Shown here in pieces: positions 26,661 to 62,073 of a DNA stretch of 64,000 nt (positions are counted from its first letter, which is position 1; each line of letters begins with the position of its first letter). A model generated the notes under the pieces. The model was not told the origin of the DNA. It made no database searches and was given only the letters and a program-made list of their open reading frames with translations. Origin of the DNA: Elusimicrobiota bacterium (GTDB taxonomy: Bacteria > Elusimicrobiota > Elusimicrobia > F11); assembly GCA_046153645.1 (NCBI GenBank), contig JBJXGI010000042.1, positions 17,280 to 81,279 on the forward strand, in the 5' to 3' direction. The translations under genes and the position numbers were made by a program.

Positions 26661-29477
26661 TTATTTACTAAGCACTTTTCTTAAGATGATTTCGATGTTT
26701 TTAAGCCCACGCAGGCCATCTTTGAAATGAATCCTTAAAGCTCTTCTATTTTTGTGCTGAAGGGCTGATAAATCACCCAACGCTTGAGCCTCTTTAAGCG
26801 TGCTAAAAGTAAAAGGTTCGCCAGCAATCGATAAATCTTTTTTATCATCTGATGTGATTTGTAAAAAGATTCCGGAGTTATCCCCTCCTTTATGAAGCTG
26901 CCCGGTTGAATGCAAGAACCGTGGACCAAACCCGATGGTGGTAGCAATATTTTTTTGATCCAAAACTAACTTTCGAATTTTTTGGAGTTGTTGCTCATAA
27001 CCTATGTTACGCGTTAAATAAGCAAGAAGGGCAAAGTAATCTCCGGGTTTAATTGAATTGAACACTTCACTTAAAATTGCCTCAAGTGATTGAGTTTCTT
27101 TCAAAAGATTCGCAGCGGCAAAAACAGAAACTCCCTCTTTTTCAAATATAGGAAGTGGCGCGCCCAAATTTCCTTTTGACGTAAAGGTTTCCAAAAACTC
27201 TTTGGTTAAATCTTTTGATTCTTGTACGTTCGGTTGATCGAAAGGATTAATATCGAGAATCTTACCGGCAATCCCCGTAGCAAATTCCCATCTAAAAAAT
27301 TCGCCAATCATCTCTTCTTCTGAATTCAATTTAATATCAATAATCGGATGACCCGCTTTTTTAAGTGCCTTTAAATTATTCGAGGTCTTGCTATCAATTT
27401 TGGTATGAATAGAAATGAATACGCGGTCATGAGCGTAACCTTTCACTCGAATGGGCTCTGATTCGACAGGGAGAATCCCAACCCCTTCTTTACCGGTACT
27501 TTCAGCAATTAGCTGTTCAACCCAGGTTGAAAAACTTGCGATATCTTTTGAAAGAATAAATGTGACTTTGTTACGCCCTTGTTTGGCCAGCACTCCTAAA
27601 ATAGCGCCCAAAACCAAACCGGGGTTTTTGTCGGTTGGAATTTGAGAACTACAAGCAGCGCTCATTGAATTGGCGATTGATGTTATTTTATGAACATCGA
27701 ATCCCATAAGCGCGGCGGGCAACATGCCAAAAAAGGACAAGGCGGAATATCGCCCACCAATATCTGAGGGGTTTAAAACAATATGGCGGAATTTTTTCTC
27801 TTTGGCAATTTTTTCCATCTGAGTACCGGGATCAGTAATCGCAATAAAGTGATCGCCCGCTTTATCACCTTTTTTCTTTTTGACCAAGTCATAAAAATAA
27901 GAAAAGAAGGCATTGGGTTCAGTTGTTGAGCCTGATTTACTGGCAACGATATAAAGAGTTTTTTCTGGTTTTGATCGACCGGCACGTTCCAAAACAGAAC
28001 CGGGTTCGGTACTATCTAAAATAGCGAATTCAGGGAAACCAGGTTTTTTGCCATAGGTCAGTCTCAACACCTCTGGACATAAACTCGATCCACCCATTCC
28101 CAAAAGAAGAATGTTGGTAAATTTATTTTTTCGAACATCGTCAGAAATTGATTTAAGAAGGGCCAATTGCCTTTCTACTTTAGAAACCACATCTAACCAA
28201 CCCAGAGAGTTACTGATAATCTTTTTATGCGCCTCATCTGATTTCCAAAGAGTGGCATCTTTATCCCATACACGTTTCACCCATGATTCTTTTTGAGCTT
28301 GAGAAATGACGGAAGCAACGTCTTGGTGGTACTTTCCGATATTAAAATTCATGGTTTTAAATTGTTGACTAGTGAGAAGTTCTTTTTTTACATTTACCAC
28401 CTTCATTAAACTTTCAAAAGAACCTGAGAATGATTTCACGCCTTCTTCTTGTAGTTGATTCATAAGATCATCAAAAGAAATACCAAGCTTTTCAATAGCG
28501 GGAAGAACTTGTTTTGCCTCATTCCATCCTGATTCTAATTTATTGGCCACTTTTCCATGGTCACGGAATGCATCGATGGTTGGTACTGGCATGGTATTAA
28601 CTGTTAAAGGTCCCACCAATTCATCAATATAAATAGTATCAGGAACTCTTTTGTCTTTGGCTCCCGTGCTCGCCCACAATAATCGTTGAACTTGAGCGCC
28701 TTTGGCTTCCAATTTTTTATACCGAGGAGAAGCTACGACATCCACAAAATGCATATAGGCTAATTTTGCATTCGCCAAACCGGCTTTATTCACGAGTGAA
28801 ACGGCTTGATTATTTCCTTTGGCAACCAAGTCGTCTAAATGTTTATTAACAATAGTATCAACACGACTCACGAAAAAACTAGCAACAGATGAAATCTGAC
28901 TAATTTTTTGCCCTTTTTTTACCCTCATTTCTAACGCTTTTACATAAGCCTCTAACACTTCTTTATAAGACTCGAGCGAGAATAAAAGAGTCACATTAAT
29001 ATTAACCCCGAGAGATAATAATTTTTCAATGGCGGGAATGCCGGCTTTGGTGCCAGGGACTTTAATCATTAAATTTGAACGTTTTACTTTTTTAACCAAA
29101 CGAAGCGCCTCTTGAACTGTGGCTTCTGTGTCATTCGCTAAATTGGGATTTACTTCCAAACTCACATAACCATCCGTTCCTTTACTGGAAATAAAAACTT
29201 TTTTTAGCGCATCAGCGGCTTGCTGAATGTCTTTGACGGCCAATTCTTCAAAGATTTCTTCTGTTGATAAATTTTGTGAGGCAAGTTTTTTAATTTCAGC
29301 GTCATATTCTGAACTTGATGAAATAGCTTTTTCAAAAATGGTGGGATTAGAGGTCATTCCTCGAAGACCATCTTGTTCTATATACTTTTTTAGTTCACCT
29401 GACTTAAAAAGTGACCGACTAATATAATCCAGCCAAAAACTTTGTTTTTCATTCCATAATTGTTGCAGCGTATTCAT
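26661..29477 (-). CDS. Bifunctional transaldolase / glucose-6-phosphate isomerase
   Basis: The 938-aa product has an N-terminal transaldolase domain (…GMTSNPTIFEKAI…, KVPGT) fused to a C-terminal PGI domain (…GMGGSSL…, …DSTEP…). Confidence 0.85.
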   Translation of the reverse strand: MNTLQQLWNEKQSFWLDYISRSLFKSGELKKYIEQDGLRGMTSNPTIFEKAISSSSEYDAEIKKLASQNLSTEEIFEELAVKDIQQAADALKKVFISSKGTDGYVSLEVNPNLANDTEATVQEALRLVKKVKRSNLMIKVPGTKAGIPAIEKLLSLGVNINVTLLFSLESYKEVLEAYVKALEMRVKKGQKISQISSVASFFVSRVDTIVNKHLDDLVAKGNNQAVSLVNKAGLANAKLAYMHFVDVVASPRYKKLEAKGAQVQRLLWASTGAKDKRVPDTIYIDELVGPLTVNTMPVPTIDAFRDHGKVANKLESGWNEAKQVLPAIEKLGISFDDLMNQLQEEGVKSFSGSFESLMKVVNVKKELLTSQQFKTMNFNIGKYHQDVASVISQAQKESWVKRVWDKDATLWKSDEAHKKIISNSLGWLDVVSKVERQLALLKSISDDVRKNKFTNILLLGMGGSSLCPEVLRLTYGKKPGFPEFAILDSTEPGSVLERAGRSKPEKTLYIVASKSGSTTEPNAFFSYFYDLVKKKKGDKAGDHFIAITDPGTQMEKIAKEKKFRHIVLNPSDIGGRYSALSFFGMLPAALMGFDVHKITSIANSMSAACSSQIPTDKNPGLVLGAILGVLAKQGRNKVTFILSKDIASFSTWVEQLIAESTGKEGVGILPVESEPIRVKGYAHDRVFISIHTKIDSKTSNNLKALKKAGHPIIDIKLNSEEEMIGEFFRWEFATGIAGKILDINPFDQPNVQESKDLTKEFLETFTSKGNLGAPLPIFEKEGVSVFAAANLLKETQSLEAILSEVFNSIKPGDYFALLAYLTRNIGYEQQLQKIRKLVLDQKNIATTIGFGPRFLHSTGQLHKGGDNSGIFLQITSDDKKDLSIAGEPFTFSTLKEAQALGDLSALQHKNRRALRIHFKDGLRGLKNIEIILRKVLSK

Positions 29478-54148: not shown

Positions 54149-55798
54149 TTATTGATAAACCCATATTTTTTCTGAAGAGCTTTTCAACTTAAACACCAAG
54201 AGGTCCTCTTTTTCAAATATTTTTTCATAACTGGGACTTTGTTCTAATTCACCAATAGACTGGGTTAATTCTTTCAACGTATAAGGAATCGAGTTCCCTT
54301 TTCGATCACAAACAATATATTCCGGGTTGGCCAGATGTTTGATTTGTAACACCCCCATATGATCTCCCACAGGAAATATTTGGACAAAACGGCGAGAATC
54401 AAAATGAGGGAGTAAATTTTGTTGCCCCGCTAGTGAAGCATCGAATGGAATTATTTTTTTTATTTCTTCAAAAGCCAAAATTTTATTTTTATGTGTAAAA
54501 CGGGAAAATTTTGGAGAGCAGTAAACTCCAATAGCCGCAGTAATAAATATCGCCCCTAAACATATTTGACGTTTATTAATAAACCATGGTTTTTGGTTTA
54601 ATTTCATAAATCCAAAAACAGCGCCAACAAATAAAAAAGCTTGCGAAGGCAAGGCGTAAATATCAGCTAAATTGAGTTGAGTTTGAGCTTGTGAAAGAAT
54701 ATGTGGGGCCAAACTTAAAATAACGGGAATAAGAAATAAAGGAGAAAGAAGTGGCAACCCCAATACGGGGAAAATGTAACACAACGACGTAAAATATTTT
54801 TGAGGGTAATAACATAACGCCTGAAATAGGGCACCTGGATTAAAAAACATATTAATAATGATCTCTCGAGTTGTTTTACCAAAAATGGGGTAACGTTCTG
54901 CCATTAATGAAGTTTCTCCCGTTTGAATAAACGTGGGAATAAAAAATTTAAATTGATATATAAAAATTCCCAGCGCGCACAATATTAAACAAAAGCCGAC
55001 CTTTTTCCAGCCTTTTTGAAAAACGAGAAAAATACCAAAACCAGTTAAAACAATTGAAACATCTTCCTTGGCGAAAAGCGCAAATAGCGCAAATAAAAAA
55101 GTGGCCACCTTTTTTCCAGATATCCAAGCCAACAATGCCAAAAAAAGCATCGGGATTTGCCATGAATCAGGATGAAAGTCATTTTGAATATTGTGCGCAA
55201 TGTAAGGTGAAGACGCATAAAGTAAAAACCCAATTAATGAATAGGAAAAAGAACCTGTTAGTTTTTTTATAATTAATCCCAATACCGGAATTCCACTGGC
55301 AATAAATAAAGCCTGAAAAACCAAAAGCACTTCTGCCCCAGGATAAAATTTATAGAAAAAAGAAATGGGCCATAAAATCCAATTGGTATGAATGGCCATA
55401 AAACATTGCTCTAAAAGAGAAGAGTAAAACCAATGCCCATAGGCTGTATTGAAACAAATATTGGAAAAAAACCCCAAATCCAGCGCGTGTGTTTGCAAAG
55501 AGGTGTGAGCGTAAAGTTTATAACTAACAACACCAGAAACATAACAACACCACAGAAGAAAAAACAAAATGACCTGCCTCTGTAAACTTAATTGGTCTAA
55601 ATATTGTCTCAATTGAGAAAAGAAAGTTATCCCGTTTTTAAAAAAAATAACCCATAAACCCACAAGGGCTAGAATAATAATAATGAATGTTTTAAGTGAA
55701 CGAATCGAAAGAGGACTACCGAAAAATTCCGTTTGAATAGAAAAGTGCCAAGGAAAAAGGGCGTTGAAAATACCCAGAAAAATAATAACGAAAATCAT
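54149..55798 (-). CDS. Large polytopic membrane protein (possibly DUF2079 / GT-C-like)
   Basis: The track ORF runs to 55933, but its first 45 codons overlap the tRNA-Ser gene (GFESPPLR is the tRNA translated). The first ATG after the tRNA (55796-55798) gives a 549-aa protein with at least 12 TM helices. Confidence 0.5.
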
Positions 55799-55874
55799 CA
55801 AATAAAAATATTTTTTCAATTGAGAACGCTTCCAGTTTAAATATTGAATTGGGTATAGACCAAGAAATTTGGAA

Positions 55875-55965
55875 CGGAGGGGGGGGGATTCGAACCCCCG
55901 ATATAGCTTTTCAACCATATAGCGGTTTAGCAAACCGCCGCACTAGGCCACTATGCGACCCCTCC
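55875..55965 (-). tRNA. tRNA-Ser (anticodon GCU), class II with long variable arm
   Basis: Minus-strand sequence GGAGGGG-TC-GCAT…GTGC-G-GCGGT-TTGCTAA-ACCGC-(variable arm ATATGG…CTATAT)-C-GGGGG-TTCGAAT-CCCCC-CCCCTCC-G. It has a 7-bp acceptor, a 5-bp anticodon stem, anticodon GCT, and a T-loop TTCGAAT. CCA is not encoded. Confidence 0.8.
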
Positions 55966-56019
55966 AAAAGAAATCATTATAAACTATTTTCTTAAGCTAT
56001 GATAAAAAGAGATTATTCT

Positions 56020-56313
56020 TCAGTCTCTTAATCCTTCTTGCATATAATCAACCACGAGATTAATGATTTGTTTAACGGTCTGACTACAAGATTTGAAAGA
56101 TATCCGTTCAAGAACTTCAAAACCATAATTTCGAAAAATATCACTGATAAGCGCGTGAATAAAAGACTGGGTTGCAGTGTCTACCTTATCGAAATCAAGG
56201 ACAACATCTTCATTTTTGTTAAGAGCAGGAACAATATCATTTAAGCGAATATTTCTTGCCACATCTTTGTTTTCGGCGAAGGCACCCGCCTTATCAAAAA
56301 TGGAAATGTTCAT
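56020..56313 (-). CDS. Small STAS-like (DUF4325-type) protein
   Basis: A 97-aa product. Its size and pattern (…VVLDFDKVDTATQSFIHALISDIF…) resemble the STAS-like DUF4325 family, by recall. It overlaps the upstream ATPase gene by 4 nt. Confidence 0.5.
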   Translation of the reverse strand: MNISIFDKAGAFAENKDVARNIRLNDIVPALNKNEDVVLDFDKVDTATQSFIHALISDIFRNYGFEVLERISFKSCSQTVKQIINLVVDYMQEGLRD

Positions 56314-57269
56314 ATAAATTTGGGTTTATGAAAACGTGCTTCTTTACGTTCACGTATCGCAGTGCTGTAGGTTTTTCGGATCGCTTCTAAAAGAAGTGAA
56401 AATTCTGCTGTCTGATCAAGCGTCATATCAATTCCAACAAGGGTGCCAAACCAATGAGGCATGTTTTCTCCTATTGAATGTCGATCTTTAAACGGATCGG
56501 CGTGCAACGAAGATCTCTTACTTGTTTTTTTAAGCAATTTATAAAAACCGCTCCCACTATAGACGACAAAATAATCTCTGTTCACATGGGCTATAGATTT
56601 AATAAAAAAAAGACCCGCTCCTGCATTTTGTTCGGTCCCGCCTTCATTTTTTGTTTTTCCTGTGATTCCCGGCATTAACGCCATACGAATCCCATCTATA
56701 TCCGTTTTGGCCAAATGGGACTGATTGATTGAAGCTTTGATTCCCATTCCAGTGTCCGCAATTCCAATTCGAATCACATTACTCTTTGGATAATATTGGG
56801 CACAAAGAAGAGCTCCATATAGAGATTCTGAATGTTCAAGCACATTTCTCACCAATTCACTGACTATATAACCGATTGTTTTGGCCTGCTCAGCTTCCAC
56901 ATGGAGAAGTGGAATCATTTCAGTAATAAACTTGCTTAATTCTTCGGAGGTTTTAATTTGAGTAAGTGGAATAAATCGTCCGGCTGGTTCATGTTCAGTG
57001 ATGCGAATATCCGTTGGAACATTTAAAATTTTAAACAGTCCCATCCGAACCAAGTAATGTTTTGAACGCGCTTCTAATTTTTCACAATGGAAATTTTCCG
57101 GTTTAATGGTCATGCCAAGCGCCGCAATCATAGAGAGCACAAAAGGGTGAACGGAAATCCATTTACTATTGGCCGTCATTTCTAATATTTCAGGTGTTGA
57201 TGGATCAAAGCTTCGCAAAAAAGGATCTATATTTCCTAAAAACGCACTATTGGGTAAGTGTATTCTCAT
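56310..57269 (-). CDS. GHKL/HATPase_c-type ATPase (RsbW/SpoIIAB anti-sigma-kinase-like) with uncharacterised N-terminal domain
   Basis: Bergerat-fold motifs appear in order: N-box ELVRNVLEHS, G1 IADTGMGI, G2 NAGAGLFF. The preferred start is the ATG at 57267-57269 (MRIHLP…). The track start is an upstream TTG at 57338, whose extra 23 codons are encoded by promoter/operator-like DNA. Confidence 0.6.
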   Translation of the reverse strand: MRIHLPNSAFLGNIDPFLRSFDPSTPEILEMTANSKWISVHPFVLSMIAALGMTIKPENFHCEKLEARSKHYLVRMGLFKILNVPTDIRITEHEPAGRFIPLTQIKTSEELSKFITEMIPLLHVEAEQAKTIGYIVSELVRNVLEHSESLYGALLCAQYYPKSNVIRIGIADTGMGIKASINQSHLAKTDIDGIRMALMPGITGKTKNEGGTEQNAGAGLFFIKSIAHVNRDYFVVYSGSGFYKLLKKTSKRSSLHADPFKDRHSIGENMPHWFGTLVGIDMTLDQTAEFSLLLEAIRKTYSTAIRERKEARFHKPKFI

Positions 57270-57275
57270 ATCAGA

Positions 57276-57326
57276 ATTATACCGGGAATCCCGGTATTTT
57301 GTCAATATTCCGGGATTCCCGGTATA
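57276..57326 (-). promoter_or_regulatory. Consensus sigma70-type promoter with two GC-rich palindromic operator sites (putative leaderless transcript of the GHKL-STAS dyad)
   Basis: Minus strand: TTGACA (57305-57300), an 18-nt spacer, TATAAT (57281-57276), then 6 nt, then ATG. Site A, TACCGGGA(T)TCCCGGTA, fills the spacer and overlaps the -10. Site B, the reverse-orientation copy ATACCGGGAATCCCGGAATA, abuts the -35 upstream. The half-site is CCGGGA. Confidence 0.5.
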
Positions 57327-57358
57327 TTGACCCTCCAAACTTCACTGAGTGTTGTGAG

Positions 57359-58282
57359 TTATTGAGGACTTAAATATTGAGAAGGAATAACTTCTCTGGA
57401 ATCCATTGAAATAGGCCGCCATAACAACTGAACTCTAGAGGGGCCACCATAATTCACGAAATCTATTCGAATGGGAAATTTTCCTTGTTTAAAATCGTTT
57501 AAACTAACCACAATGGGTTCACGCCAATTAAAATTATTATCAACAATCAGTTTATCATCAATCCAAACTTTAATTCCATCGTCTGCCACGCCAATAATCT
57601 CATATTTTCCTGAAGACGGAAACGTAATCCACCCCTTCCACCGAGCAGAAAAAATACTTAAGTCGCCGAAGTTTTCAATAGGATAGGCATTTCCCCAATT
57701 GAAATCAACAGCTAAATCTTTCCGGGAATAAATTAAATCTTTGAACTCACTCCCTCTAAAGTACTCGCATATAAGGCCGCGTTTTTCATTTAATTTATTT
57801 TGCCTTATCTGCCATATTCCAATTCCTATAAATAATACGAAAGCAAACAAAGAAATAAATTTCCAATAAGGATAAACAAAACGATAAAAACCATTTTTAA
57901 TAAAAGATAAAAACCGGTAATAAATTGAAAGCTGTGGGTAAACGCTATAAATACTTTTCTCAATGAGATCTTCCGCTTTTTTAAGCATCTTTAAAAAAAT
58001 ATCGACCTGTTCAACATGAGCATTTTCATCATGCCCATTATTGGCCAGAGAATAACTTTCAATTTGATTTAAAATGGTCATTTCTGATAAAAACTTTTCA
58101 CTCTGAGGAAGGTGTTTAGCAAGATCTTTCATTGAATTTAAAATAAATGGCTTGGAAAATTCAATCAAATCAAAATTCTCTGAATCAATCAGATTTTTTA
58201 TCCCTTCGATATTGGATTTAAGTTTGTTAAATTTCTTAGAAATTTCTTCAATACTCATTTTTCTCTCCATTCGATAACCCAA
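57359..58282 (-). CDS. Membrane-anchored PA14-domain protein (cytoplasmic N-domain, 1 TM, periplasmic PA14), paralog 1
   Basis: The TM helix is FISLFAFVLFIGIGIW. The C-terminus is PA14-like (…FSARWKGWITFPSSGKYEIIGVADDGIKVWIDDKLIVDNNFNW…RVQLLW). The track start is TTG; ATG alternatives lie 4 or 8 codons downstream. Confidence 0.6.
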   Translation of the reverse strand: MGYRMERKMSIEEISKKFNKLKSNIEGIKNLIDSENFDLIEFSKPFILNSMKDLAKHLPQSEKFLSEMTILNQIESYSLANNGHDENAHVEQVDIFLKMLKKAEDLIEKSIYSVYPQLSIYYRFLSFIKNGFYRFVYPYWKFISLFAFVLFIGIGIWQIRQNKLNEKRGLICEYFRGSEFKDLIYSRKDLAVDFNWGNAYPIENFGDLSIFSARWKGWITFPSSGKYEIIGVADDGIKVWIDDKLIVDNNFNWREPIVVSLNDFKQGKFPIRIDFVNYGGPSRVQLLWRPISMDSREVIPSQYLSPQ

Positions 58283-58319
58283 AGTAAATATTCATAGATT
58301 GTATTAAATATTATTTCAA

Positions 58320-59576
58320 CTAGGCCTTTATTAAATCCAGCATAAATTTAATTTGTGACGCACTACCAACAATCATTAAAAGTATGATTGATATCAATAA
58401 AAAATTCTTTTTTTCTCTAAAAAAACTCTGTATTGCTTGCGCGTATAACAAAGCCCATCCTAACCATAACCAAGAAAGGTATCGAAAATCCATAGAACAA
58501 GAATAAGGGCTCCGAGCAAGATAAAAATAAGTAATGGGCACCACACCAACTAAAACTATTCCAAATAATTGGGTTGTTTTATTTAAGTTAATTTTAGAAA
58601 CACTCATCAGGCACACCAAAAATCTAACAACAAAAACAACCCAGGCCGTGTTTATTAAGAAAAAGGGATAATCGTGTTGGCCAAAAAGAGAACTGGAAAA
58701 ACGATACAAAAAGTAATTTGTACATTTTGAATAATAACCGACAAAATTGAGCGCATATGGATTATCAAATTGGCCACCAATGAGACCAGGAATTGAAAAA
58801 ATGACTTTAAATGGAGATTCTTGGAGCCTTAATTCACCTCCTAAAATATCCCAATTAACAGGGAATAATTTACCCGTATAATAATAGTTGTGACCAATAA
58901 TCCAGGGGAGAAATAGGGTCGTGGCACTGCCTAAGATAAAAAAATAAGAAAACGCGGTGTTCCAAGGAATCTTCTTTAAAACAGCTGACACTAAAACAAT
59001 TGAGCTCGAAATCATCATACACATAACAATATTTGATTTGGTATAGAGAGCCGCGGTTGTAACAAGGCCCAGCAAAACCAAAATGACTTTCTTTTTAGAA
59101 TGAGAAAAATAAATATAACTTAAAAAGAAAAATAACATGCTTAATAATGAAAAAAGTGAATCGTTATTATAAGTAGTAAACATATACAGAAAAGCGGGTG
59201 CCGTCGAAATAAACAATAAAACCACCATTGCTATCCAAACCTTTATTTTTATAAGCCTCAAAAATAAAATAATAATAATCAAACAAAGAAGCCCGTAGAC
59301 AACAGAAAGTTTTCGAATATTTTCTACATGATGACCCCATTTTTTAATAACAAAGCTGTTGATTAAATAATAAAGCGGTGGATGATAGGTTTGCCAGGCT
59401 TCATCAGGAGAGGGCAGTCTATCTTGATAGGCAATAATGTTTGTGTATTCTACGTGCCCTTCAAAATCATACGTTCTTGCATCATCAGGAGAATATCGGA
59501 TATACATCAAGGCAAAAAGGACCCAAAAAACAAGAAATAAACCAAGTAAAAAAAAATTAGAAATTTTTTTGGTCAA
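58320..59576 (-). CDS. GT-C superfamily polytopic glycosyltransferase (ArnT/PMT-like)
   Basis: The first extracytoplasmic loop after TM1 has acidic motifs (SPDDARTYDFEGH) and …TYHPPLYYLI…, which resembles the KPPL.YW motif of ArnT/GT83. It has about 10 TM helices and overlaps the UGM gene by 4 nt. Confidence 0.5.
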   Translation of the reverse strand: MTKKISNFFLLGLFLVFWVLFALMYIRYSPDDARTYDFEGHVEYTNIIAYQDRLPSPDEAWQTYHPPLYYLINSFVIKKWGHHVENIRKLSVVYGLLCLIIIILFLRLIKIKVWIAMVVLLFISTAPAFLYMFTTYNNDSLFSLLSMLFFFLSYIYFSHSKKKVILVLLGLVTTAALYTKSNIVMCMMISSSIVLVSAVLKKIPWNTAFSYFFILGSATTLFLPWIIGHNYYYTGKLFPVNWDILGGELRLQESPFKVIFSIPGLIGGQFDNPYALNFVGYYSKCTNYFLYRFSSSLFGQHDYPFFLINTAWVVFVVRFLVCLMSVSKINLNKTTQLFGIVLVGVVPITYFYLARSPYSCSMDFRYLSWLWLGWALLYAQAIQSFFREKKNFLLISIILLMIVGSASQIKFMLDLIKA

Positions 59577-61087
59577 GTTTTAGGCCTAATTGATTTTGGA
59601 ACATCTCTTAAACCAGACGACTGATTAGAATTCTGTTCAGCTTCTTCTATATATTCCGCGTCTTGATTGACATTCCAAGGGTCAAAAGAGTCAGACCCGG
59701 AAATAATATTTTGGACAGTGAGCATGGCTGTCATCATGGCATGATCTTGATTATTATATTTATGCATCCCATTTCTTCCTACGAAATGTAAATGGGGATA
59801 ATCACTATCAACTGTTTTTCGAATTAAATCAACACAATCCTTATAAACATCGTCATAAACGGGGTAGGCTTTGGGTTGTCTGATAACGAATCCATCTTTA
59901 ATGTCAGCTTCATGGGCTAATCCTAATTTTACCAACTCTTGTTGCGCTAATTTAACCAGGTCTTTATCAGGCATTTCCCATAAACCGTCACCTTTAAAGC
60001 AAAAATATTCTAACGAATAACACGTCATGTTAGGATCAGGCACCATTTCCGGTGACCACGACTTAAAATTCTGAATTCTGCCCACCTGAACACTAGAATC
60101 GTGAATATAAATCCATTGATCTGGGAGGTTCACTTTATCTTTCAAAATAACGCCGACACAAATAAAATCGCGGTAATGTAATTTACTAGCAGCGCTCATA
60201 ACGTCTTTATTGGGAACAGGTGAGAGCGCATGAATAACTTCACCCAAAGGAGCGGATGAAATAACGTGCTCCGCATTTATTTCTTTAACATCTTGTTCTT
60301 TAGTAATCCTCACTGTCCATAAAGAATTAGTTTTATCGAATTGAAAATGTGACGCTTTATAACCCATATAAACCAGGCCGCCCATCTTTTGAATCTTTTC
60401 AGAACACACGTCCCACATCATCCCCGGGCCTTTTCGAGGATAACGAAACTCGTCTATAAGAGTTTTAATTTTTGTTTTCGATTTTTTAAAAGGGGATAAA
60501 GTTCTAAACGAATTTATTATGGCGCTGCCCAACGACAATTTCCCAATCCGTTGAGCGGCCCAATCAGCGGAAATATCTTTACACTTCATTCCCCACACTT
60601 TTTCCGTATAAGTTTTGAAGAATATCTGAAAAAGTCTTTTACCAAATTGATTACTCACCCAATCTTCTAGATTGGTTGCATTTTTTACGGGAAACAATTG
60701 CGCCCATAAAAAAGATGAGATACATAACATGGTTTCAATGGGGCCCAAATTAAAAAAAGCTTCAAAGGGACGCAACGGGTAGGAGTAAAACTTCCCTTTA
60801 TAAAAAATACGAGAAACTCTTTTACGAACAATAAGGTCTTTCTCTAAAAGCTCCGTCCACAAATCTTCCACCGCTTTGGATTTAGAATAAAACCGGTGCC
60901 CGCCAATATCACTGTAATACCCTTTATAATCAATTGTTTTAGAAATACCACCGACGTATTTTTCATCGGTTTCTACCACAATTACGAGTTTTCCTTGTTT
61001 TGCCAATAAATAAGCTGCGGTAAGGCCGGCAGGGCCGGCTCCAATAACGACCACTGATGTTTTTAAATTATTGTTGTTTTCCACCAA
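59573..61087 (-). CDS. UDP-galactopyranose mutase-like flavoenzyme, long (eukaryote-type) form
   Basis: It has an FAD Rossmann motif (VVIGAGPAGLTAAY…VETDEKYVGG…DIGGHRF). Internal (…FFKTYTEKVWGM…) and C-terminal (…FVGRNGMHKYNNQDHAMMTAMLTVQNIISG) motifs parallel Glf/UGM, especially the 500-aa fungal/kinetoplastid type. Confidence 0.6.
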   Translation of the reverse strand: MVENNNNLKTSVVVIGAGPAGLTAAYLLAKQGKLVIVVETDEKYVGGISKTIDYKGYYSDIGGHRFYSKSKAVEDLWTELLEKDLIVRKRVSRIFYKGKFYSYPLRPFEAFFNLGPIETMLCISSFLWAQLFPVKNATNLEDWVSNQFGKRLFQIFFKTYTEKVWGMKCKDISADWAAQRIGKLSLGSAIINSFRTLSPFKKSKTKIKTLIDEFRYPRKGPGMMWDVCSEKIQKMGGLVYMGYKASHFQFDKTNSLWTVRITKEQDVKEINAEHVISSAPLGEVIHALSPVPNKDVMSAASKLHYRDFICVGVILKDKVNLPDQWIYIHDSSVQVGRIQNFKSWSPEMVPDPNMTCYSLEYFCFKGDGLWEMPDKDLVKLAQQELVKLGLAHEADIKDGFVIRQPKAYPVYDDVYKDCVDLIRKTVDSDYPHLHFVGRNGMHKYNNQDHAMMTAMLTVQNIISGSDSFDPWNVNQDAEYIEEAEQNSNQSSGLRDVPKSIRPKT

Positions 61088-61161
61088 TAAGCTCCAAATC
61101 TACAGACCTTTAAATTTTTAATATATACTTGTGCACACAAACCCTTAACCTTTAATAGCAA

Positions 61162-62073
61162 ATGGAAGAAACTAATAATCTCATAAAAAAAGCGACTCTG
61201 GTTCTAGATTCCGCTTTTGCAATGCTACATCAAGATCCATCGACAGCAAAACTACTTATTTTTAGAACTATCATAATATTAAAAAGAACCTACGAGGGGA
61301 TAAGAATTGGAACAAATGATGATCAGCAATATGAAATCCCAAACACATCAATTATCTATGAAGACTATGTACAAGAATTATTTAAAACTTCCCTTATAGA
61401 TTTAGAAAAAATTTCCATTTCAGACAGCACACTGAAGATAACGTTAATTCAAACTAAAGATGAGCTAGAAAAACTCAAAAAAGAATTGGGTTTAAATTCT
61501 TTAAAAAAATATAAAAATAAAATACTAAAAATTTTTCTTAGTAATTTTTTTCTGAAAAAAATATTACCAACATTAGTTTTTTCTTTCACTTCTTTATTTG
61601 TTATAAAAATAGTTTATCATCACGTCATTGATAAAAAACATGGACTAACTACAGAATATTTCTCGGACCATAATTTATTATCACGAACGTTCGTAAACCA
61701 CAATCGGGAAATCGATTTTGACTGGGGATATTCTGGTCCTCTGCCTAATGGTCAAGCAGATTTTTTCTCAATTAGATGGGAAAGTTATTTATTCGTCCCA
61801 GAAGACAATGAATATAGTTTTATAACACTGTCCGATGACGGGGTTCGGCTTTGGATTAATGATTTTTTACTTATTGATGACTGGATAAATCATCCTCCTA
61901 TTTATAATGAAAATAAAATACGCCTCCCAAAGGGATTCCATAAATTTAAGCTAGAATATTATGAGTATGATCTTACAGCAGGTGTAAGAGTCTTTTGGAG
62001 ACCGCTAACGAGTAAAAAGAAAGAAATTATCAAACAAAAATTCTTCTATCTCGAAAATCCTATCAAAGGTTAA
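61162..62073 (+). CDS. Membrane-anchored PA14-domain protein, paralog 2
   Basis: Same architecture as 57359-58282. The post-TM region (…EYFSDHNLLSRTFVNHNREIDFDWGY…FFSIRWESYLFVPEDNEYSFITLSDDGVRLWINDFLLIDDW…VRVFWRP) is clearly homologous to paralog 1. Confidence 0.6.
   Translation: MEETNNLIKKATLVLDSAFAMLHQDPSTAKLLIFRTIIILKRTYEGIRIGTNDDQQYEIPNTSIIYEDYVQELFKTSLIDLEKISISDSTLKITLIQTKDELEKLKKELGLNSLKKYKNKILKIFLSNFFLKKILPTLVFSFTSLFVIKIVYHHVIDKKHGLTTEYFSDHNLLSRTFVNHNREIDFDWGYSGPLPNGQADFFSIRWESYLFVPEDNEYSFITLSDDGVRLWINDFLLIDDWINHPPIYNENKIRLPKGFHKFKLEYYEYDLTAGVRVFWRPLTSKKKEIIKQKFFYLENPIKG

Follow-up and report, generated by a model that had tools for sequence, protein, structure and literature searches.

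A mobile cassette encoding a STAS-GHKL kinase-like protein and a STAS-like partner, with palindromic operators at its own promoter

What does a pair of small genes do when its products resemble a kinase and its substrate, and no gene beside them resembles an output? We consider this question for a locus in a 64 kb stretch of DNA (the window) from an Elusimicrobiota metagenome-assembled genome (MAG), in which gene K (56310..57269, minus strand) encodes a 319-residue STAS-GHKL Ser/Thr-kinase-like protein, and gene S (56020..56313, minus strand) encodes a 97-residue STAS-like protein of the DUF4325 type. The mobile unit spans about 1.3 kb from the distal operator, O1, to the S stop codon. We think it probable, if only by a modest measure, that this unit is an autonomous cassette that would act as a signal-activated kinase-substrate switch and repress its own promoter. 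The original prediction, made from the window alone, held that such a GHKL-STAS unit has no assigned function, and this is out of date, the kind having been described by Chambers et al. (EMBO J, June 2026; PMC13373217).

In the systems described there, CapK (HTH-STAS-GHKL, with HTH a helix-turn-helix) is switched on by single-stranded DNA (ssDNA) and phosphorylates Ser54 of CapS, a repressor with STAS and winged helix-turn-helix (wHTH) domains that is released through this phosphorylation, and CapK/CapS pairs are found upstream of CBASS, Bub and Thoeris operons (PMC13373217). VapK (STAS-GHKL) phosphorylates the antitoxin VapS so that the PIN toxin VapC is freed, VapKSC being a toxin-antitoxin system that acts against phages and for which there is a structure (PDB 9z7o), and CapK W68 and VapK F54 are proposed to stack on ssDNA (PMC13373217). 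A STAS-GHKL kinase with a STAS substrate is thereby a portable ssDNA-sensing module joined to varied outputs. The K-S cassette is, by its sequence, related to the DNA-damage sensors CapK/CapS and VapK/VapS without their output parts (HTH, wHTH, VapC and a conserved neighbouring operon), and appears to be the bare sensing module with no output attached.

Domain architecture of K and S

The K start codon is the ATG at 57269, which yields a 319-residue protein identical (100%) to NCBI protein P0001; residue numbers refer to this start. The ATPase of the original prediction is therefore present, although its length of 320 residues was one too high, and a 342-residue reading from TTG 57338 is rejected as too long because that codon sits upstream of the promoter. 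The 97-residue partner was correctly called, with both open reading frames (ORFs) on the minus strand and the K TGA stop and S ATG having ATGA in common, a 4-nt overlap. An AlphaFold2 model of K built on a diverse alignment, widened with cluster representatives of 30-50% identity, has a predicted local distance difference test score (pLDDT) of 92.8 and a predicted template modelling score of 0.91; homologues at 71-85% identity alone gave a pLDDT of 41.6.

Together with homology, this model places a Bergerat-fold GHKL kinase domain at residues 126-288 approximately (56406..56894, minus strand). The three ATP-binding motifs that had been read from the window are all located in K, with ELVRNVLEHS at residues 138-147 (N-box E138/N142/H146), DTGMG at 172-176 (G1, D172xGxG176) and GAGLFF at 217-222 (G2, G217xG219). 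Residues N142, D172, G174, G176, G217 and G219 are invariant in 58/58 aligned family members, which extend down to 21% identity to K, and counterparts of the catalytic N-box Asn (CapK N218) and of the ATP-binding glycine boxes are among them. Profile searches divide the two proteins, in that S scores 50.1 bits against DUF4325 (cut-off 23), in agreement with the proposed type of partner, but K scores 21.5 bits against Pfam HATPase_c_2, below the gathering cut-off of 27.4.

The GHKL half of K is nearest in structure to SpoIIAB and RsbW, as the original prediction had supposed (the scores for histidine kinases, MutL and topoisomerase II are <10), and a search of NCBIfam gives a weak spIIAB match. 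Both observations favor an ordinary Rsb/SpoIIA partner-switching pair, the sigma factor and PP2C phosphatase of which are encoded elsewhere. However, a built-in STAS sensor domain, which RsbW does not have, makes K twice as large as SpoIIAB or RsbW, and its similarity to VapK and CapK is far greater. S, for its part, falls in the divergent DUF4325 family. The predicted absence of a sigma factor or PP2C partner also stands, as neither was found among the window neighbours scanned or among the recurrent Pfam families of 145 neighbouring ORFs surveyed in other genomes. Moreover, archaea of the DPANN, Methanosarcinales and Thermoplasmatota groups, which have no sigma factors, carry the cassette behind TATA-box promoters. 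With no sigma factor or PP2C recurrence, archaeal copies and the extra STAS domain, we reject a classical Rsb/SpoIIA module as very improbable.

The N-terminal region of roughly 150 residues had been regarded as unplaceable, and we now assign residues 1-124 (56898..57269, minus strand) to a STAS-like sensor domain as in VapK and CapK, because the K family aligns with both proteins across both domains. Using VapK, VapS, CapK and CapS sequences from the supplementary files of PMC13373217, hhalign matches the K family to VapK with 98.75% probability (E 1.4e-16, 244 columns, both domains) and to CapK with 98.2% probability (E 4e-14, both domains). The beta-alpha repeat of the model provides the corresponding secondary-structure pattern; Foldseek against PDB gave no independent proof of a STAS fold for the domain, and a PDB profile search with the domain alone returned nothing beyond a pendrin STAS match that was not significant. 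The domain bears invariant PNSAFLGN, W37, P42 and YLxRMGLF motifs, and both F10 and W37 are invariant, in loops that correspond, through alignments with indels, to those of CapK W68 and VapK F54. In the wider family an aromatic residue occupies the W37 column in 37/58 members and lies two positions later in 16/58. Residues 289-319 (56313..56405, minus strand) form a clade-specific C-terminal helix and basic tail with a net charge of +5 and a near-invariant F318, for which VapK has no equivalent.

S consists of the STAS-like domain only, ranging from 94 to 108 residues across the clade. Its profile matches the PDB 9z7o 'VapS' chain (Escherichia) with an E-value of 0.008, and hhalign against VapS gives 3.6e-5. 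Its T48-Q49-S50-F51 motif is invariant and lies near the position of the VapS S48/CapS S54 phospho-site. VapS S48 is aligned opposite Q49 in the profile alignment, and S50 matches CapS S54 at the motif level, such that S50 would be the likeliest phospho-acceptor, with T48 as an alternative.

The likeness to VapK/VapS includes a K protein of STAS-GHKL form without an HTH, a small STAS-like partner of the DUF4325 type encoded by the very next gene and, as far as the alignments can indicate, a conserved hydroxyl residue at the start of helix alpha-2 and an aromatic residue in a sensor-domain loop. In contrast to VapKSC, there is no VapC/PIN gene, S ends at residue 97 and does not contain the C-terminal inhibitory helix (residues 94-116 in VapS) that blocks VapC, K has an additional basic C-terminal helix, and the cassette is distinguished by a conserved palindromic operator of its own, a leaderless layout and an archaeal as well as bacterial distribution. 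We note that in the window the pair is flanked by a PA14 protein and tRNA-Ser, and that no VapC/PIN neighbour recurs, as no family is found in more than three loci among the 145 ORFs. The locus is therefore not a VapKSC system, having neither the VapC/PIN gene nor the VapS helix. With CapK/CapS it shares homologous STAS and GHKL domains (YLxR(M/L)G(L/F)F is among their common motifs), the K-then-S gene order, palindromes at the promoter of the pair and an S motif, TQS50F, that resembles CapS DSS54F. The K protein is without the N-terminal HTH of CapK, however, S is without the CapS-type wHTH, and no immune operon is conserved downstream, sequence past the S stop not being conserved and the neighbouring families being unrelated. 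A CapKS-type controller of a neighbouring operon is rejected on the last two of these grounds.

The cassette promoter and its operators

The prediction that the pair has its own operator-bearing promoter is supported. A perfect TTGACA-18-TATAAT promoter (57305..57276, minus strand) lies ahead of K, its -35 hexamer TTGACA (57300..57305, minus strand) and -10 hexamer TATAAT (57276..57281, minus strand) together giving 12/12 consensus matches with an 18-nt spacer. Operator O1, the palindrome TATACCGGGAATCCCGGAAT (57308..57324, minus strand), is directly upstream of the -35 hexamer, and the proximal operator O2, the palindrome TACCGGGATTCCCGGTA (57280..57296, minus strand), occupies the promoter spacer as far as the -10 hexamer. 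The palindromes themselves span 57309-57323 and 57281-57295. This palindrome, written TACCGGGAWTCCCGGTA / ACCGGGAWTCCCGGT or, for the 17-bp site, TACCGGGAATCCCGGTA, is present in two copies in the window, and a search allowing up to two mismatches finds three matches against 0.04 expected. The third, ACCGGCAATCCCCGT at 27264-27278, has two mismatches that break the palindrome and is probably a chance occurrence. Since only 6 nt separate the -10 hexamer from the ATG, the K-S mRNA should, from this layout, be leaderless, and the location of the palindromes at the pair's own promoter implies autoregulation.

The arrangement is conserved, and the operator is the most revealing element of the cassette. 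The motif is found about 60 nt ahead of the K start in nearly all of 79 loci, and across 789 kb of related loci it occurs 116 times, in 114 cases within 100 nt upstream of K and at two fixed positions. In bacterial hosts the order is O1, TTGACA, O2 with TATAAT, a gap of 5 to 11 nt and the start codon, the gap falling within that range in 45/46 bacterial-type loci. In archaeal copies TTTATAAATA, an archaeal TATA box, takes the place of the sigma-70 hexamers, with the full upstream O1 retained and a half-site positioned after the TATA box and before the ATG. In a clade only 46% identical, both the ATGA overlap and the leaderless arrangement recur with a different promoter repeat, ATACCCGTAGATCGTAT / ATACGACCTACGGGTAT. 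Operator variation within the cassette clade is sporadic only (CCGGG to CCWGG); a co-variation approach to the operator-reading protein gave no answer, and a metagenome scan with the 46%-identical relative returned one phage lineage only.

The confinement of the operator to the promoter, its retention after the promoter swap and the clade-specific repeat together indicate that a protein encoded by the module reads it. We favor K or a K-S complex in this role because K is basic (isoelectric point 9.45) and S is acidic (isoelectric point 5.4). We also note that each operator holds two CCGG tetranucleotides, and that the tolerated CCWGG variants, like these, are common targets of DNA methyltransferases and restriction enzymes (window 57280-57324 and related loci). 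Some related loci depart from the usual arrangement: L053 and L057 (5900-6000 in each) have three tandem operator-plus-TTGACA units rather than two operators, as from duplication of the promoter region, and in a Woesearchaeota locus (L069:5890-6000) short tandem ACGACAAAC-like repeats stand in place of the promoter region, the nearest operator being 276 nt upstream.

If the cassette encodes a repressor, it could control promoters with this operator at other genomic sites or on invading phages, as an 'orphan' CapKS-like regulator acting in trans. There is a precedent in CapS, a repressor that CapK phosphorylation releases, and an operator-only scan of viral contigs gave 29 matches, most of the single ones being at chance level by our estimate and only the four paired ones meaningful. 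The paired operator-like sites are exactly 28 nt apart, which is the O1-O2 spacing, and occur in four IMG/VR contigs with no K or S gene (L122:10954-10996, L115:1735-1777, L113:9290-9332 and L099:1989-2031). In L122 the pair is just upstream of a 110-residue gene, with an endolysin-like gene on its other side, and the L115 and L113 pairs fall inside ORFs; these sites could be trans targets, decoys or remnants. However, the 64 kb window contains no second good site, nearly all motif matches in related loci belong to the promoter of the cassette itself, and S has no DNA-binding domain, such that a regulator acting in trans is distinctly unlikely.

Pairing, spread and the proposed switch

The two genes are near-obligate partners. 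The 80 cassette loci fetched are 65-75% identical, and S directly follows K in 77 of 78 complete loci, with the 4-nt overlap in 74 of the 77; the expectation that the genes would co-occur in other genomes is confirmed, and K-S fusion proteins are found in several divergent clades. K has 3190 matches (E <= 1e-3) among 90%-identity protein clusters, of which the best 120 are all 71-85% identical, and a scan of 185,579 species-level genomes found relatives in 415, which gives the cassette a far wider distribution than the published 443 capKS and 289 vapKSC loci (PMC13373217). Bacterial hosts of the fetched loci are predominantly Elusimicrobia, with Omnitrophota, Planctomycetes, Chlamydiae, Delta- and Gammaproteobacteria, Saganbacteria, Spirochaetia and the candidate phyla radiation (CPR), and archaeal hosts are DPANN, Methanosarcinales and Thermoplasmatota. 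In a neighbor-joining tree of K the archaeal copies all group together with their host taxa scrambled, and the bacterial phyla are interleaved. Synonymous sites are saturated (median proportion of synonymous differences, pS, 0.86) while the nonsynonymous proportion (pN) is 0.20-0.24, so the conservation reflects constraint rather than recent transfer; for unsaturated pairs the nonsynonymous to synonymous rate ratio (dN/dS) is about 0.10 for K and 0.14 for S. The cassette has spread between Bacteria and Archaea almost unchanged, and very strong purifying selection acts on it across Elusimicrobia, CPR bacteria and DPANN archaea.

The relatives point to mobile and conflict settings. The 46%-identical clade is a moron between phage head and tape-measure genes, and distant K-S dyads (22-30% identity) lie beside the integrase of Marinitoga phage MPV1 and between lysin and paratox in Streptococcus Javan prophages. 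Small plasmids encode longer single K-like proteins (343 and 339 residues) with no separately annotated S gene, one of them beside BrnTA. In addition, the PADLOC DrmA model PDLC02567 (1750 positions) matches K at positions 32-248 and S at 320-390, and since its N-terminus matches K and then S, some DrmA helicases may carry a fused K-S sensor module, as the profile alignment suggests. The locus itself is not a DISARM DrmA, only N-terminal model segments aligning and the helicase core being unmatched. Because distant relatives are present on phages, prophages and plasmids and in the DrmA model, K-S modules, whether free-standing or fused, are a general feature of mobile and conflict settings.

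These features would also suit a toxin-antitoxin (addiction) module, in which one partner would be toxic (most plausibly the K kinase acting on an essential conserved target), the other would neutralize it, persistence and spread would be selfish instead of protective and the operator would be a case of classic toxin-antitoxin autoregulation. As in type II systems such as HipBA, two small, translationally coupled and seemingly tightly autoregulated genes are mobile and have operators overlapping the -35 and -10 motifs, and the relative VapKSC is a toxin-antitoxin system. Flanks are unrelated between genomes, the K tree shows horizontal transfer, and some copies adjoin Phd/ParE, AbiEii, MNT or BrnTA modules. 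One MAG has two copies (L014 and L044), and in a Methanosarcinales locus (L062:6940-6995) a full operator is fused to the last S codons (…DYMQEID*) 2.6 kb from an intact cassette, apparently what a deletion has left of a second copy. However, no known toxin fold or DNA-binding antitoxin domain is evident, the VapKSC toxin VapC is absent, and the conservation is extreme, at 65-75% identity across Bacteria and Archaea with synonymous changes at saturation, far above that of typical toxin-antitoxin pairs. We regard an addiction module as possible but doubtful.

For the autonomous switch that we prefer, homology with CapK/CapS and VapK/VapS makes the following sequence of events plausible. At rest, a module-encoded repressor, probably a K-S complex touching DNA via the basic K protein, would occupy the two operators that bracket the -35 hexamer and overlap the -10 hexamer, keeping the leaderless K-S transcript low. 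A signal, most likely ssDNA from DNA damage or phage replication, would activate K by binding in its STAS-GHKL interdomain groove, and K may then phosphorylate S on S50 or possibly T48. The K-S partnership would change as a consequence and the promoter would be derepressed. As no output is encoded next door, either K or S would have an output activity of its own that targets some widely conserved component of the cell, in the style of toxin-antitoxin or abortive-infection systems, or the output would be exerted in trans on other operator-bearing promoters.

Several observations count against this switch. Neither K nor S has a recognizable DNA-binding domain, and the identity of the repressor is a guess. 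The equivalence of F10 and W37 to the published ssDNA-stacking residues depends on loop alignments with indels, the match of S to CapS by sequence is not significant, and the residue opposite VapS S48 is Q49 rather than Ser or Thr, with the candidate acceptors S50 and T48 each one residue off. Both known outputs are excluded, because S has neither the CapS wHTH nor the toxin-blocking VapS helix, and no replacement is visible. The cassette is absent from the viral contigs searched, and it shows no defence-island enrichment in our sample, with few PADLOC matches among neighbours. The conflict-system role proposed in the original prediction is consequently supported in part, by the VapK/VapS and CapK/CapS homology, the DrmA-model match and the distant relatives that are prophage morons, but not by genomic location.

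A more far-reaching form of the switch would make the cassette a minimal host-independent stress- or infection-sensing device that is its own effector, with some phages carrying paired operator copies to exploit or titrate it. Such a device could function in both Bacteria and Archaea by virtue of a leaderless mRNA, its own repressor-operator pair and a target that is a universal cell component or ssDNA, although we hold this form to be unlikely. Either K or S has an unrecognized intrinsic activity, or a sensor alone is selectable. What the cassette adds to the systems described in 2026 is autonomy, extreme conservation and spread between domains with promoter replacement, and the retention of the operator through the swap of sigma-70 hexamers for a TATA box is a natural experiment in adapting a cassette to different transcription machinery. 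With two small proteins and a 17-bp site, the system should be experimentally easy.

Flanking genes of the window

The cassette had been proposed as a switch for the adjacent envelope-glycan and PA14 genes, and local regulation of these genes or of tRNA-Ser is suggested by adjacency, in the window only. The tRNA-Ser(GCT) gene (55874-55966, minus strand) is indeed present where it was predicted, 53 nt downstream of S. However, neighbours differ in every other genome, the 145 flanking ORFs containing 158 Pfam families of which none is found in more than three loci, and most neighbours elsewhere are housekeeping genes. Comparison with about 80 other genomes shows unrelated flanks, and even the closest copy (85% identical) has different ones, sitting between ThiF and ThrRS. 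A tRNA lies within about 400 nt of the cassette in 3/60 loci and anywhere in the locus in 5/60. A local regulatory role is thus scarcely credible, and the glycan cluster (57359-62073) is unrelated to the cassette. We looked up the upstream PA14 protein to find an empty insertion site and obtained no record.

Some features of the flanks are of interest in their own right. The listed 594-residue DUF2079 ORF (54149-55933, minus strand) begins at a TTG within tRNA-Ser, and its real start must be further downstream; upstream of the tRNA gene there is a promoter-like TTATCA-18-TATAAT sequence (56005..55976). The 57359-62073 cluster holds a PMT_2-like glycosyltransferase and an FAD oxidoreductase, the latter with a weak, sub-threshold match to UDP-galactopyranose mutase. 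On either side of these is a PA14-domain protein whose N-terminal part has helical and transmembrane regions.

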